A stretch of 38,977 bases of DNA. Origin: Chlamydiota bacterium. GTDB lineage: Bacteria; Chlamydiota; Chlamydiia; Chlamydiales; Rhabdochlamydiaceae. The DNA is taken from positions 1-38,977 of the forward strand of contig JAHFTP010000001.1 in the NCBI GenBank assembly GCA_023265495.1, written 5' to 3'. This document shows, one piece after another, positions 8,004 to 11,751 of this stretch. Numbering within the stretch: the first letter of the stretch is position 1; each line of letters starts with the position of its first letter. The position numbers and the translations under genes were made by a program. Below the pieces are notes generated by a model that was given only the letters and a program-made list of their open reading frames with translations, did not search any database and was not told the DNA's origin.

Positions 8004-9809
8004 ATGCCACAGATTACTGCCACCACTAAACTGTCCCCTACACCGCCCCTCCCTATGAGTTTTGCAAAAAAAGCCGCTTGGGTGGCCGTAGCCGTGCTTA
8101 TCGTAGCCATCTTTTTAGTAGTGGTTGTGGCTACCCACGGAGCCGGTCTAGGCGTCGTCGGCGCCTTCTTGCTAAGCAAAGGAACGATGCCTTTATGTAT
8201 TTCTGTCGGCTCTCTGGTGGGCCTTGACCTTGGCCTTGCTACTTACGCTATTAAATCCGCTTGCTCACAAAAAAAGCAAACCTCGGAGCCTGCAGGTCTC
8301 AAAGGAAATTCGCAGAGAAAGAAAAGAGGTGGTAATAACCCATATGGGTCTCTGGGTAAAACTCCTACTCTGAACCCAGAGACAACCTCTATAAATGGAA
8401 CAAAGGAATCCAGTTTTATCGACTCTACAAGATCCCAGTCTGTTGTCGGCTCATTATCTTCTTCTGTAACAACGACCATTGCAACGATAAACTCCGTCCC
8501 TTCTGATAGAACAAAGAAAGACAGTCCTATCAACTCTACAAGAGTGTTTCAACCGTCCGAGTCCATTGTCAGCTCATCATCCTCTTCTTCTGTAACAACG
8601 ACCACTATGACAGACACTAGACCATCCCATGTACAAAAGATGCATGCTTCAAAAGAGAGCCTTTTAACAGATGAAGTCATACAATCCATGATCCCGAAAA
8701 ACATCAGAGACCCAGATCAAAGAGCTATGCTGTTCAATCTAGTAAAATCATGGGATGAACACATAGGGGATGAACGCGTCTTAGGAAATAAACCCAGTAA
8801 CTGCTGGCCAACAAGAGAAGAACTAAAATCTGTCCTACGCACCCGGCCATCTACACGGCCACTTACCTTTTCTGTAAGCGCAACAGCAGCGCAAGGGAAA
8901 AGAGAAACTATGGAAGACACCCATTTTTGTTATGATCTCGAAGATGGCCTACTTGCAGGCGTCTGCGATGGGCATGGGGGAAGGGATGTAGCTGATTATT
9001 TGCATGAGCATTTTGTAATGGTCTTTCAGATACACCTAGTAAGCGCCCGTGGCAACATCCGCCTTGCCTTTCAAAAGACGGCAGACAGCATTACAGATAA
9101 CTTACGAAGCAAGGAATTTGCGTCGGCGCAAGGATCAACCGCCGTTGTATCCTACATAGACAAAAGAACCCATATTGCCTATACAGCAACATGGGGAGAT
9201 AGCGAAGCGAACCTCTATAGAGACTTTGAAGGCAGGACAAAATCTCTTCCCCTTTCTCCCATGCGAGACTTTGCCTCTGAACATAATTGGAATATGGCTA
9301 TGAAAGCGGCAAGAAAAGAATCGAGAATTTACACAGAAACCGAATACGGTATTCGTTACAATTTCATTTTTGAAGGAGTCTGCCTTATACATCCAAAAGA
9401 GGGAGAGTTAGAAGATCCCAAGGGAGTGAGGATTGCTCTTCCCATTGGACATCATGGGAATGTGGCTAGTGCTTTTGGTGATTTTAACTGTCTCGGCGCT
9501 GTAGACTTCATGCCGCAAATCACTGAAGTGGTTCTGTGTCCCGGTGACACCCTGCTGCTAGCCTGTGACGGCTTAAAAGACTATGTGGAAGAAGATACAA
9601 TAACAAGGCTCATCACAGAACAATATTCTGCCGAAGGTATAGTGGACCATGCAATCAATGTAGAAGAATCCCGGGATAACGTCACAGTCATGAAAATTCA
9701 AATACCGAATAGCTCAACGCCACCAGATTATAAAAAAACTAGTGTAAATGCATCTACGGTAGATGATCTTTTCTCTGATCTAAAGCCAACCTCTGATACG
9801 ACCCCGTGA
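8004..9809 (+). CDS. Inc-like membrane anchor fused to a PP2C (PPM) Ser/Thr phosphatase domain, paralog 1
   Basis: The bilobed hydrophobic region is KKAAWVAVAVLIVAIFLVVVVATHGAGLGVVGAFLL...CISVGSLVGLDLGLATYAI. An S/T-rich linker follows. PP2C motifs present are GKRETMEDTH, GVCDGHGG, LLLACDGLKDYV and SRDNVTVMKIQI. GAAGGA lies upstream of the ATG. Confidence 0.85.
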   Translation: MPQITATTKLSPTPPLPMSFAKKAAWVAVAVLIVAIFLVVVVATHGAGLGVVGAFLLSKGTMPLCISVGSLVGLDLGLATYAIKSACSQKKQTSEPAGLKGNSQRKKRGGNNPYGSLGKTPTLNPETTSINGTKESSFIDSTRSQSVVGSLSSSVTTTIATINSVPSDRTKKDSPINSTRVFQPSESIVSSSSSSSVTTTTMTDTRPSHVQKMHASKESLLTDEVIQSMIPKNIRDPDQRAMLFNLVKSWDEHIGDERVLGNKPSNCWPTREELKSVLRTRPSTRPLTFSVSATAAQGKRETMEDTHFCYDLEDGLLAGVCDGHGGRDVADYLHEHFVMVFQIHLVSARGNIRLAFQKTADSITDNLRSKEFASAQGSTAVVSYIDKRTHIAYTATWGDSEANLYRDFEGRTKSLPLSPMRDFASEHNWNMAMKAARKESRIYTETEYGIRYNFIFEGVCLIHPKEGELEDPKGVRIALPIGHHGNVASAFGDFNCLGAVDFMPQITEVVLCPGDTLLLACDGLKDYVEEDTITRLITEQYSAEGIVDHAINVEESRDNVTVMKIQIPNSSTPPDYKKTSVNASTVDDLFSDLKPTSDTTP

Positions 9810-10027
9810 ATTCCAACGATTCCAGAGAAGCTGTCCGTAGCGTCACAGAAGCAAAATCTATTCGAGATACTTCTTTCTAGTGCTTTGCACAACGGCTCTT
9901 ACCTTTGTTGGAGAGGAAATACTCGGATGGATGGCTTCTACTCCTTGGCGGTTCTAAAATCGAACTGATCTTTGACCGAGAAGATCCTGCTATAAGCAAG
10001 CACAAAGTATTTATCTTCAATTATTTA

Positions 10028-10057
10028 TTGATAATTTCTCACGTCTTTCGTTACAAT
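10028..10057 (+). promoter_or_regulatory. Candidate sigma-70-type promoter for PP2C paralog 2
   Basis: TTGATA (10028-10033), an 18-nt spacer, then TACAAT (10052-10057), about 33 nt upstream of the ATG at 10090. Pattern match only. Confidence 0.3.
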
Positions 10058-10089
10058 CAACCCAATTTTTTTACACAGGGATTGTATTT

Positions 10090-11751
10090 ATGACAACATC
10101 TGATACTGCCGTTCGAGGACGACCTCATACACTGCACAATACTTCCGCGAATTGTACAAAAAAAGCTGCTTGGGTAACGGTGGCCGTGGTGGCTACAACC
10201 ATCTTTTTAGCAGTAGTCTTAGGCACTCATGGAGGGGGGCTGGGCTCCGTTGGCACCTTCCTACTCAGCAGGGGAACGATGCCTTTAGTAGTTTCTACAA
10301 GTGTGTTAGGGGGAGTTGGCCTTTTAGGCGCCGCTCGCGTTGTTCAATCCACCTGCTCACAAAGAAGACGGACACCGGACAACTTTATGCTCAACCCTAT
10401 CTATAAGCCAGGTGAAAATCGCACCTTCGTTACGAGCAACCCACCCCCTTTAACAGATTTAGCACCACCCACTCCACAAGATACTCCTGTTAATGCCGAC
10501 GCTATTACGATCAGCCCTTCCTCTCCCACTACATTCGATTTACGTGTTACACCCCTTGAGCCCAATGGCTCCTCTCCCGGCGGTAGGCCGGATTCCACAG
10601 CTATGAGTTCTGCTCTTACGGCAACTGCTACTGTAATGGACACAAGGCCCCTCCACGTACAAAATATCCATGCTAGGAGAGATCAACTTCTCACGGATAC
10701 AGACATACAATCCATGATCCCGGAACACGTCACAGAGACAAATCGCAGAGCTATGCTTACAAATCTCATAAAATCGTGGAATGAACATAGCCTGGAAAAG
10801 CCATCCCCTGCTTGGTTAACAGCAGACGAACTACTATCCGTTTTACACACCTTGCCATCTACACGGCCACTTACCTTTTCTGTAAGCGCAACAGCAGCGC
10901 AAGGGAAAAGAGAAACTATGGAAGACACCCATTTTTGTTATGATCTCGAAGATGGCCTACTTGCAGGCGTCTGTGATGGGCACGGAGGAAAGGATGTGGC
11001 CATGTATTTACAGGATTGTTTCCCAAGGGTCTTTGAGCAAATCTTAATAGACAATGACAATAATGCCCACCTCGCCTTTCAAAAGACGGCGGAAAGCATC
11101 ACAGAGGACTTGCGAAGACATCCTTTTGCAGTCGCAAAAGGATCAACTGCCGTCATATCTTACATAGATAAAGGAACCCATATTGTCTATACAGCAACAT
11201 GGGGAGATAGCGAAGCGAACCTCTATAGAGACTTTGAAGGTATGACAAAATCCCTTCCCCTTTCTCCCATGCGAGACTTTGCCTCAGAACACAACTGGCA
11301 TATGGCTATGCGTATAGCAAGAAAGGAATCGAGAACTTATATAGATGTGGAACATGGCCTTGATTACGATACGCATTTTGATGGAATCTGCCTTATACAT
11401 CCAAGAGAGGGAGAGTTAGAAGATCCCAAGGAGGTGAGGATTGGCCTGCCTTCAGGAAGAAGCGGGAACGTGGCTTGTGCTTTTGGTGATTTTGAATACC
11501 TCGGCGCTGTAGACATCATGCCACAAATCACCCAAACGGTCTTGCGTCCGGGAGACACCCTGCTACTCTCCTGTGATGGCCTGAAAGACTTTGTGCAGGA
11601 AGAACATACGGCAAACCATATTTCCCTAGGATGTCCCACTGATTATATAGTAAGACATGCAATTGTGGAAGCGCGCTCTGAGGACAACGTCACGGCCCTG
11701 AAAATGCAAATAGGAGAAGAGGCCTCTATCGATGGGACGTCGCATGAGTAA
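10090..11751 (+). CDS. Inc-like membrane anchor fused to a PP2C (PPM) Ser/Thr phosphatase domain, paralog 2
   Basis: Same architecture as 8004..9809: KKAAWVTVAVVATTIFLAVVLGTHGGGLGSVGTFLL..., a P/S/T-rich linker, then GKRETMEDTH, GVCDGHGG, LLLSCDGLKDFV and SEDNVTALKMQI. Long stretches are identical to paralog 1 at a constant offset of 2008 nt. Confidence 0.85.
   Translation: MTTSDTAVRGRPHTLHNTSANCTKKAAWVTVAVVATTIFLAVVLGTHGGGLGSVGTFLLSRGTMPLVVSTSVLGGVGLLGAARVVQSTCSQRRRTPDNFMLNPIYKPGENRTFVTSNPPPLTDLAPPTPQDTPVNADAITISPSSPTTFDLRVTPLEPNGSSPGGRPDSTAMSSALTATATVMDTRPLHVQNIHARRDQLLTDTDIQSMIPEHVTETNRRAMLTNLIKSWNEHSLEKPSPAWLTADELLSVLHTLPSTRPLTFSVSATAAQGKRETMEDTHFCYDLEDGLLAGVCDGHGGKDVAMYLQDCFPRVFEQILIDNDNNAHLAFQKTAESITEDLRRHPFAVAKGSTAVISYIDKGTHIVYTATWGDSEANLYRDFEGMTKSLPLSPMRDFASEHNWHMAMRIARKESRTYIDVEHGLDYDTHFDGICLIHPREGELEDPKEVRIGLPSGRSGNVACAFGDFEYLGAVDIMPQITQTVLRPGDTLLLSCDGLKDFVQEEHTANHISLGCPTDYIVRHAIVEARSEDNVTALKMQIGEEASIDGTSHE

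Follow-up and report, generated by a model that had tools for sequence, protein, structure and literature searches.

A tandem pair of membrane-anchored PP2C phosphatases with an Inc-like N-terminal region, from an apparently Chlamydiota-restricted phosphatase clade that may face the host

The PP2C phosphatase Cpp1 of Chlamydia is a small, soluble enzyme. All Chlamydia spp. have Cpp1 (CTL0511/CT259), whose presumed partners inside the bacterium are Pkn1 and PknD, and Chlamydia also carries RsbU, a sensor phosphatase, together with its paralog CT_589, which is inactive (PMC5177608). Eukaryote-like PP2Cs are described from Protochlamydia, Parachlamydia, Waddlia and Legionella, and are read as transfers from eukaryotes (Kerk et al. 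2015, PMC4524716). Parachlamydiaceae, in turn, have expanded eukaryote-like effector families with F-box, BTB, LRR and related domains (Domman et al. 2014, PMC4209131). Inc proteins are defined by two transmembrane (TM) helices of 15-32 aa, a loop of <30 aa between them and a type III secretion (T3S) signal, and putative Incs with a macro domain indicate that an Inc can carry an enzymatic domain (PMC3048545). Here, we analyze two adjacent genes, A and B (products P0001 and P0002), that encode PP2C phosphatases with an Inc-like hydrophobic region. They lie in a 38,977-nucleotide stretch of contig JAHFTP010000001.1 from an uncultured Chlamydiota bacterium of the Rhabdochlamydiaceae (the whole stretch analyzed, hereafter the window). 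An earlier annotation by a model that saw only the DNA letters, here called the original prediction, proposed that the pair forms a host-facing Ser/Thr phosphatase system. We find that the two proteins may indeed be exported, membrane-tethered and host-facing Ser/Thr phosphatases, a reading to which we assign a probability of roughly 0.4, and that they belong to a large PP2C clade found in environmental Chlamydiota.

Both genes are intact open reading frames (ORFs), adjacent and co-oriented where the original prediction had placed them, and their 601-aa and 553-aa products are 56% identical across 536 aa (BLASTP, E=0). The complete PPM/PP2C domain predicted for each was confirmed. In the Pfam search that had been proposed as a check, PF00481 (PP2C) scored 68.2 bits in A and 51.8 bits in B, above its cut-off of 20.3 bits. 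The motifs RETMEDTH, CDGHGG, WGDSE, CDGLKD and DNVT are all present in both proteins, and in A they sit on columns that do not vary across a family alignment of 50 members (R300, E304, D305, H324, D399, D522, G523, D558 and N559). The metal- and phosphate-binding residues of A are R300/E304/D305, D322/G323/H324, D399, D522/G523 and D558/N559, with the same residues in B. We take their counterparts in PPM1A to be R33, E37, D38, D60, G61, H62, D146, D239, D282 and N283 (motifs 1, 2, 5, 8 and 11), a correspondence that is backed by a profile alignment to PPM1B. An AlphaFold2 (AF2) model of A, built from a shallow multiple sequence alignment of four sequences, has a PP2C core with predicted local distance difference test (pLDDT) scores of 80-93, and Foldseek matched it with probability 1.0 to tPphA, PPM1K, HAB1 and PstP (TM-score of 0.55-0.71 on the target). 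Owing to a ~22-aa insert, the flap region of A (~aa 420-500) is enlarged; the two closest relatives, P0003 and P0004, lack this insert. In the family motif NVSRAxGD, the residues SR give way to AS in A and to AC in B. By residues and fold, A and B are thus catalytically intact PP2Cs, with activity predicted; we rejected a pseudo-phosphatase because all catalytic residues are intact.

Upstream of the catalytic domain, the two proteins share an N-terminal cassette. The short polar N-terminus that had been predicted was found in both: 11 of the first 25 residues of A are S, T or P and none is D or E, and among the 32 ORFs of the window the S/T/P-rich, acid-poor N-termini of A and B rank first and fourth. 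A hydrophobic region follows in both proteins (aa 23-84 in A and 26-85 in B). It had been described as bilobed, but its profile is tri-lobed: in A, THGAG stands between a strong lobe (residues 24-44) and a short one (49-58), and KGTMP between the short lobe and a moderate one (64-83). Only the first lobe (TM1) is clearly TM-grade. In a crude sum of central-position Hessa values (i.e., not the full dGpred calculation), TM1 alone among the three lobes is negative, at ~-4.3 kcal/mol in A and ~-1.5 kcal/mol in B, and the 19-aa Kyte-Doolittle maxima are 3.2 and 2.4, respectively. The AF2 model of A shows a helix across residues 20-58 (pLDDT ~70), with low confidence past residue 58. Comparison of the paralogs gave a dN/dS of ~0.35 for the hydrophobic region and of 0.45 for the PP2C domain, whose catalytic machinery is under purifying selection; the leader, linker and tail are saturated. 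Because of the low ratio in the hydrophobic region and because the stretch THGxGLGxVGxFLLS[KR]GTMPL is conserved between A and B, the comparison of the two sequences indicates that the anchor is under selection.

Between the anchor and the catalytic domain, the original prediction had placed an S/T/P-rich disordered linker of 150-200 aa. Composition and disorder agreed with this description, but the linker is shorter, ~120 aa in A and ~95 aa in B, because the next ~80 residues form a helical pre-domain that is conserved across the family. In the 50-member alignment, pre-domain columns M242, N245, K248, E252 and H253 are at least 90% conserved, and the pre-domain helices (residues 208-259) reach pLDDT values of up to 91 in the AF2 model. 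The linkers of A and B are just 30% identical to each other. That of A contains an internal duplication of ~111-126 nt (direct repeats D6 and D8, window positions 8395-8604), which explains part of the 48-aa difference in length between the two proteins; a repeat search found no tandem repeats apart from this one.

The hydrophobic region had been presented as the hallmark of an Inc protein. By a crude 17-aa Kyte-Doolittle rule, it resolves into two segments (residues 27-43 and 64-80 in A; 29-45 and 66-82 in B) that are separated by a 20-aa loop without acidic residues and have basic residues on their flanks (KK before and KSACSQKKQ after the anchor of A). By this crude rule the arrangement fits the formal definition, but the second lobe is marginal. 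Like Incs, the window proteins are chlamydial and have a short polar N-terminus, then a hydrophobic domain of 40-60 aa or more with a hydrophilic dip, a loop of <30 aa rich in Gly, Thr and Pro, basic flanks, and a large remainder that is predicted to lie off the membrane. Unlike Incs, they have no sequence homology to known Incs, and their hydrophobic region has three lobes with a weak second helix. An Inc reading of the pair is plausible but unproven. In line with the original prediction, we found no characterized Inc-PP2C fusion, nor a description of a chlamydial PP2C expansion, in the part of the literature that our searches covered.

We next placed the pair in its wider family. With phmmer, 1.84 billion cluster representatives (clusters at 50% identity) were searched exhaustively, which returned 1225 relatives at E<=1e-3 and at least 151 clusters at E<=1e-30. 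This exhaustive search was needed: a word-index homolog search had found two relatives with the single protein and none new with a 50-member profile. A and B are each other's top hits, with 149 further clade members at E<=1e-30. Among the 150 hits listed, alignments other than that to the paralog start only at ~aa 210-290 (i.e., they cover the pre-domain and PP2C domain), and the PP2C domain is C-terminal in nearly all of these relatives, behind N-terminal extensions of ~30 to >600 aa. We define the clade by the pre-domain helix KMxKNxxKAIxEH, the motifs YTAT[LVI]GDSE, S[IL]PLSxxR[DN]W and CDG[LV]KD[YF]xxE, and a C-terminal PP2C domain. A and B carry these features with small deviations (AMLFNLVKSWDEH, YTATWGDSE, SLPLSPMRDF and CDGLKDYVEE). 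Pfam finds only PP2C-type domains in the clade, with PF00481 in all 50 members of the alignment and PF13672 in 28 of them.

The distribution of the clade was surveyed by a scan of 185,579 species (one genome each) with three family-specific motifs. It returned 60 loci, ~46 of which carry chlamydial labels (Chlamydiae, Chlamydiota, Parachlamydiales, Parachlamydiaceae, Rhabdochlamydia or Sacchlamyda), with eight unlabelled and six labelled Verrucomicrobia. No locus was found in any organism outside the Planctomycetes-Verrucomicrobia-Chlamydiae (PVC) group, in any Chlamydiaceae or in any cultured species among these genomes. Four of the six Verrucomicrobia-labelled loci (L027, L028, L041 and L050) are syntenic with loci labelled Parachlamydiales, Parachlamydiaceae or Chlamydiales, with flanking proteins 50-87% identical, and these GenBank metagenome-assembled genomes (MAGs) were probably placed too coarsely or wrongly within the PVC group when labelled Verrucomicrobia. 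Several MAGs hold two or three clade loci, and tandem arrays of two to three genes occur in L005, L016 and L020. A Pfam census of 97 flanking genes revealed diverse housekeeping and accessory functions. These results suggest a large PP2C clade that is apparently restricted to environmental Chlamydiota and apparently undescribed.

The N-termini of this clade vary widely. Among 151 sequences (the two window proteins and 149 relatives), 79 have no hydrophobic segment, and ~28 have one, in some cases at the extreme N-terminus where it resembles a signal peptide (e.g., the short N-termini of P0063, P0113 and P0038). Two TM-like segments <30 aa apart were found in eight, namely the window pair and at least six unrelated proteins (e.g., P0040, P0138 and P0132). 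Another 35 begin with a conserved ~85-aa module, M.YSL..H..GY.LS...TGLSGAPYA.RHWEL...GHR.IA.LE.IP.LG..AALIER. Roughly half of the clade thus carries some N-terminal hydrophobic module. The ~85-aa module, present in about a quarter of the clade, belongs to no Pfam family and ends in the hydrophobic, helix-turn-helix-like HRxIAxLExxPxLGxxAALIER. We saw it at L002, L005, L007, L020, L034, L035, L046, L047, L049 and L059 (representatives P0004-P0137), and it is almost exclusively fused to PP2C in the loci examined; the exception is L045, where it forms a separate 223-aa ORF directly 5' of the PP2C gene.

The N-terminal module of the window pair itself matched only the paralog among the 150 listed hits of the exhaustive search. 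Furthermore, a species-genome scan with full-length protein A, whose patterns included FAKKAAWV, found nothing, and two metagenome scans (one with an alignment pattern, one with back-translated FLLS[KR]GTMPL) gave chance matches to it only. The module is therefore without another relative among the searched clusters, species genomes and metagenomes, as far as these sequence searches indicate. The architecture that had been called unusual is so with respect to this module, which occurs nowhere else, but it does not stand alone, since the PP2C domain is that of a large family restricted to Chlamydiota, several members of which have hairpin-like regions of independent origin. Because the clade is confined to intracellular bacteria, multi-copy, tandem, equipped with interchangeable N-termini that include export-type ones, and devoid of conserved signalling partners, it appears to behave like an accessory, host-interaction family.

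We then compared this clade with the described phosphatases. It shares PPM/PP2C chemistry in a chlamydial organism with Cpp1, but the window proteins are 553-601 aa long with an anchor, linker and pre-domain, and the clade motifs were found in no Chlamydiaceae genome; we rejected a Cpp1 ortholog on this difference in architecture and distribution, judged by the description of Cpp1 rather than by its sequence. The original prediction had named one soluble chlamydial PP2C, CppA. A soluble enzyme does exist, under the name Cpp1, but the account was incomplete, since RsbU, CT_589 and eukaryote-like PP2Cs are also reported (PMC5177608, PMC4524716). RsbU, CT_589 and SpoIIE-type proteins resemble the window proteins as membrane-associated PPM phosphatases that carry TM segments at the N-terminus and the catalytic domain at the C-terminus. 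In contrast, the window proteins have no PF07228 match and no periplasmic sensor or HAMP domain, and Pfam found no rsbV/rsbW-type (STAS or anti-sigma) genes in the window, so an RsbU-type sensor was rejected.

The eukaryote-like PP2Cs of Kerk et al. (PMC4524716) are likewise found in intracellular, amoeba-associated bacteria and resemble eukaryotic enzymes, and the window clade too scores best with PF00481. N-terminal membrane modules, tandem arrays and the size of such a clade are apparently not addressed in the passages of that paper on chlamydiae, and our motif scan found no locus in Protochlamydia, Parachlamydia, Waddlia or Legionella, the genera given there for its nine sequences. Against the PDB, the family profile matched human PPM1B first (2.9e-23), then plant PP2Cs and PPM1A, with cyanobacterial tPphA (bacterial group I) at 4e-20, and Foldseek ranked bacterial and eukaryotic PP2Cs equally. 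The clade is thus eukaryote-type by Pfam, though not decisively, and a clear eukaryotic origin of the domain was rejected because eukaryotic PP2Cs rank only slightly above tPphA. The families of Domman et al. (PMC4209131) are similar in being lineage-specific, multi-copy, carried by environmental chlamydiae and presumed to target the host; however, the domain expanded here is an enzyme, and the term PP2C is absent from the text of that paper.

At the level of the genes, each copy has its own AT-rich upstream region (310 bp for A; the 280-bp spacer for B) with a promoter-like site, although the count of such sites does not exceed shuffled expectation, and A has a AAGAAGGA ribosome-binding site 7 nt 5' of its ATG. 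Nucleotide identity between A and B is ~65-78% outside two tracts of much higher identity. Because of this patchy pattern (91-100% against the 65-78% background), gene conversion has probably occurred between the paralogs. Two further database entries relate to the pair. The ENA protein P0272 (401 aa, on a 1.7-kb contig) is an A/B chimera with its junction within tract 1, which reflects either faulty assembly or true recombination; P0273, from a second assembly, is the 601-aa protein A with a single substitution.

In the reading that we favour, the catalytic module of the clade (pre-domain and PP2C) would have gained a new N-terminal cassette in this lineage, consisting of a ~22-aa acid-free polar leader, a ~62-aa anchor and a ~100-aa disordered tether. 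The gene would then have been duplicated, with gene conversion still homogenizing parts of the copies. We infer export, membrane of residence, topology, activity and substrates as follows. The proteins would leave the bacterial cytoplasm, most probably by T3S via the leader, and the hydrophobic hairpin would span the inclusion membrane such that both ends of the protein face the host. This would place a Mn2+/Mg2+-dependent phosphatase on a flexible leash with a contour of up to ~40 nm, where, at the inclusion surface, it could dephosphorylate pSer and pThr of host proteins or of other inclusion-membrane proteins that carry phosphate. As their linkers and flaps differ in sequence, A and B may have separate targets. 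The restriction of the clade to obligate intracellular bacteria and its effector-like character (multi-copy, tandem, with hypervariable N-termini) plausibly support this host-facing placement, as do the Inc-like hydropathy and acid-free leader of the pair, the 424-aa ORF nearby with its Inc-type hairpin, and the precedent of the macro-domain Incs.

Several points weigh against it. Membrane-anchored PP2Cs that act inside bacteria are common (e.g., PstP, SpoIIE and RsbU), as are TM-anchored PP2Cs in free-living bacteria. A and B could likewise be anchored in the bacterial inner membrane, their hairpin inserted via the signal recognition particle (SRP), YidC or Sec with both termini in the bacterial cytoplasm, and act on membrane-proximal bacterial phosphoproteins, for example targets of Pkn-type kinases or the secretion and division machinery; we consider this the main rival, though somewhat less likely. 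Its strongest support comes from TM1 of A. The TM segments of T3S substrates peak at a dGapp of ~-1 kcal/mol and escape SRP, while ordinary inner-membrane anchors lie at -2 to -5 kcal/mol (PMC6110835); by our crude sum, TM1 of B falls inside the T3S-substrate range, but that of A falls outside it, is far more hydrophobic than such substrates and is as hydrophobic as regular anchors. Because TM1 of A is so extremely hydrophobic, capture by SRP in the bacterium would be favoured. The basic residues on both flanks follow the positive-inside rule and fit an N-in/C-in inner-membrane hairpin equally well, and the second lobe, which is Gly-rich and broken by K59, P63 and D75, is not TM-grade alone. 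The neighbouring proC, PAP2 and nitroreductase genes are of housekeeping type and the PP2C-proC-PAP2 linkage is old, chlamydiae already use the sensor PP2C RsbU (PMC5177608), and the source organism is uncultured. On the other hand, the clade is atypical of core bacterial signalling because it is patchy, multi-copy and was not found in Chlamydiaceae, and because its N-termini are hypervariable, some of them signal-peptide-like. No Pkinase or FHA domain was found by Pfam in the scanned ORFs of >=150 aa in the window, in line with the original prediction that no kinase or FHA gene lies adjacent, and no kinase, FHA or STAS family is among those shown for the 97 flanking genes of clade loci (all families found in at least two neighbours). 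The proteins also lack a PF07228 match and a sensor domain, and a ~100-aa S/T/P-rich disordered linker would be unusual for a cytoplasmic bacterial enzyme.

Export by Sec offers a further, improbable explanation, in which TM1 is a signal anchor or a long signal peptide and the PP2C domain ends up in the periplasm or inclusion lumen, perhaps to reach the host by a second step, as has been proposed for some Sec-dependent chlamydial effectors. In its favour, TM1 is the one strongly hydrophobic lobe and has small residues behind it at positions -3 and -1 (A might be cleaved at VVA|TH, B at VLG|TH), and export of the catalytic domain seems to occur in the family, since a few members (P0063, P0113 and P0038 among them) have short signal-peptide-like N-termini. 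However, the n-region of 22-25 aa and h-region of ~20 aa exceed the length usual in signal peptides, the Lys/Arg clusters right after the hydrophobic region (KKQ and RKKR in A; RRR in B) disfavour C-terminal translocation, and the conserved second and third lobes would be left unexplained. We give very little weight to the idea that the pair are decaying, non-functional duplicates (pseudo-phosphatases or assembly artefacts). Loss of the R of NVSRAxGD in both copies and the chimeric P0272 speak for decay, but both ORFs are intact with all metal-binding residues kept, dN/dS is <0.5 in both anchor and domain, the same protein A recurs in a second assembly with one substitution (P0273), and each gene has its own promoter-like site.

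The surroundings of the pair are chlamydial, as judged from sequence matches. The named matches to the window PheS (73-76% identity) are MAGs labelled Chlamydiae, Chlamydiia or Chlamydiota and two labelled Verrucomicrobia, and the best matches, at 81%, are JGI metagenome proteins; contigs of relatives share with the window the order nusB-murB-PHP-folC-like...rRNA methylase-aminoacyl-tRNA synthetase-infC-rpmI-rplT-pheS. In the window, pheS is followed by the tRNA-Ser(TGA) gene, which abuts the large serine recombinase gene. The region past pheS is variable, because relatives whose PheS is 77-81% identical diverge immediately there and have entirely different genes at this position: in one, an AbiE toxin-antitoxin pair together with an ATPase, and in another, an APH-type kinase along with ankyrin-repeat proteins. 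The segment with the nuclease, recombinase and tRNA-Ser genes looks like an integration hotspot, and GC content is low (0.36) in the 13-14 kb interval; no convincing direct repeat of att type that matches the tRNA-Ser end and could bound an island turned up in a repeat search. The linkage of PP2C, proC and PAP2 nonetheless appears old, because the same trio is adjacent in a distant chlamydial MAG (L013), where PAP2 and a proC 46% identical to that of the window adjoin a short PP2C-family gene. In another chlamydial MAG (L011), the PP2C gene adjoins a nitroreductase gene. We rejected recent acquisition of the pair as island cargo because this old linkage in a distant MAG argues otherwise, though the tRNA-Ser/recombinase region is variable in relatives.

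Two orphan ORFs lie upstream of the pair. The 424-aa ORF, which the original prediction had called Inc-like, has a classical two-helix hairpin (residues 337-355, loop GCP, 359-378), a second hydrophobic stretch at residues 102-127 and an apparently helical, charged middle, and its product is a fair Inc-like candidate by hydropathy. The claim of an SH2-like neighbour was not confirmed. In the 262-aa ORF, residues 147-172 (WHQVDRLGAERVLQEKEVGTYIFRKD) are similar to the first half of an SH2 domain, but this assignment is not supported, as the SH2_2 match (aa 147-180, E 0.05-0.08) is sub-threshold, no PDB sequence matched at E<=10 and a single-sequence AF2 model reached a pLDDT of only 40, which makes it unusable. 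Because the 262-aa ORF cannot be called SH2, the broader proposal of a host phospho-signalling locus is weakly founded. SH2 domains bind phosphotyrosine, and PP2Cs act on pSer and pThr.

Table 1 Features of the phosphatase pair and its surroundings, in window coordinates
Feature	Coordinates	Strand	Basis or remark
Gene A (P0001), membrane-anchored PP2C phosphatase, 601 aa	8004..9809	+	ORF; Pfam PP2C 1.2e-18; AF2/Foldseek PP2C fold
A aa 1-22, polar S/T/P-rich leader without acidic residues; candidate secretion signal	8004..8069	+	composition only
A aa 23-86, hydrophobic anchor (~62 aa hydrophobic)	8070..8261	+	hydropathy, AF2, dN/dS 0.35
A aa 87-205, disordered S/T/P-rich linker, ~120 aa	8262..8618	+	S+T+P 36-56%; pLDDT <35
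A aa 206-284, helical pre-domain (~50-80 aa), common to the whole chlamydial PP2C clade	8619..8855	+	motif KMxKNxxKAIxEH; AMLFNLVKSWDEH in A
A aa 285-570, PPM/PP2C catalytic domain, all metal-binding motifs	8856..9713	+	Pfam, alignment, AF2, Foldseek
A aa 571-601, tail			
Gene B (P0002), 553-aa paralog, architecture as in A	10090..11751	+	ORF, Pfam, BLASTP
B aa 25-88, hydrophobic anchor, less hydrophobic than that of A	10162..10353	+	hydropathy
B aa 259-543, PP2C catalytic domain, motifs intact	10864..11718	+	Pfam, BLASTP, alignment
Promoter-like TTTAAA-17-TATAAT	7945..7973	+	consensus match only; inside AT-rich 310-bp stretch 5' of gene A
Promoter-like TTGATA-18-TACAAT	10028..10057	+	consensus match only; inside 280-bp spacer 5' of gene B
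A/B high-identity tract 1	A 8826..9005 (codons 275-334); B 10834-11013	+	91-100% nucleotide identity, sliding window
A/B high-identity tract 2	A 9141-9275 (codons 380-424); B 11149-11283	+	93-97% nucleotide identity
Orphan ORF, 424 aa, Inc-like candidate upstream of pair	4755..6029	+	no Pfam family; hydropathy
Orphan ORF, 262 aa	6026..6814	-	sub-threshold Pfam SH2_2
proC	6895..7692	-	Pfam
PAP2 gene	11778..12467		
YhcG/PDDEXK nuclease	13986..14861		adjoins recombinase
Large serine recombinase, 578 aa	14982..16718		
Possible integration hotspot	13986-16795		
tRNA-Ser(TGA)	16706..16795	-	overlaps 3' end of serine recombinase gene
NTP_transf_8 nucleotidyltransferase and AbiEi_2-like ORFs	508-2078	-	
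HEARO RNA (RF02033)	2139-2363	-	Rfam 133.6 bits, gathering score 83
cdaA and ybbR	28278-30364	+	

Elsewhere in the window, adjacent ORFs for an NTP_transf_8 nucleotidyltransferase and an AbiEi_2-like protein likely form an AbiE-type toxin-antitoxin or abortive-infection pair; in relatives, AbiEi/AbiEii instead stand directly after pheS. Near this pair lies a HEARO RNA, an RNA tied to HNH-endonuclease/IscB-type elements. No obvious full-length IscB-like ORF is beside it, and the next ORF on the same strand (1293..2078) has only a weak AbiEi_2 match. The window also encodes a DAC-domain c-di-AMP synthase gene, cdaA, paired with ybbR, which resembles the dacA-ybbR pair of Chlamydia.

PP2Cs and Inc-type anchors are each already known; what is apparently new here is the combination of a PP2C with an Inc-like anchor, within a Chlamydiota-restricted clade that is apparently undescribed. 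Phosphorylation by host kinases controls several interactions at the chlamydial inclusion, and we know of no phosphatase that resides in the inclusion membrane. Tentatively, the pair may represent the most membrane-committed members of an unrecognized class of chlamydial host-directed Ser/Thr phosphatases, built from one catalytic module and interchangeable delivery N-termini (a hairpin anchor, the ~85-aa module or a signal peptide). Either outcome, host-facing or bacterial, is informative. If the proteins act within the bacterium instead, Ser/Thr signalling in chlamydiae would have an unexpectedly expanded layer that Chlamydiaceae lack. If they are exported and active, they would constitute a new enzymatic class of Inc-type effector and the first inclusion-membrane proteins with phosphatase activity, acting as tethered 'erasers' of host or Inc phosphorylation. 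Environmental chlamydiae would then possess a large PP2C effector family in which one catalytic module is combined with several delivery modules, and this family would provide a natural system for how effectors acquire membrane targeting.

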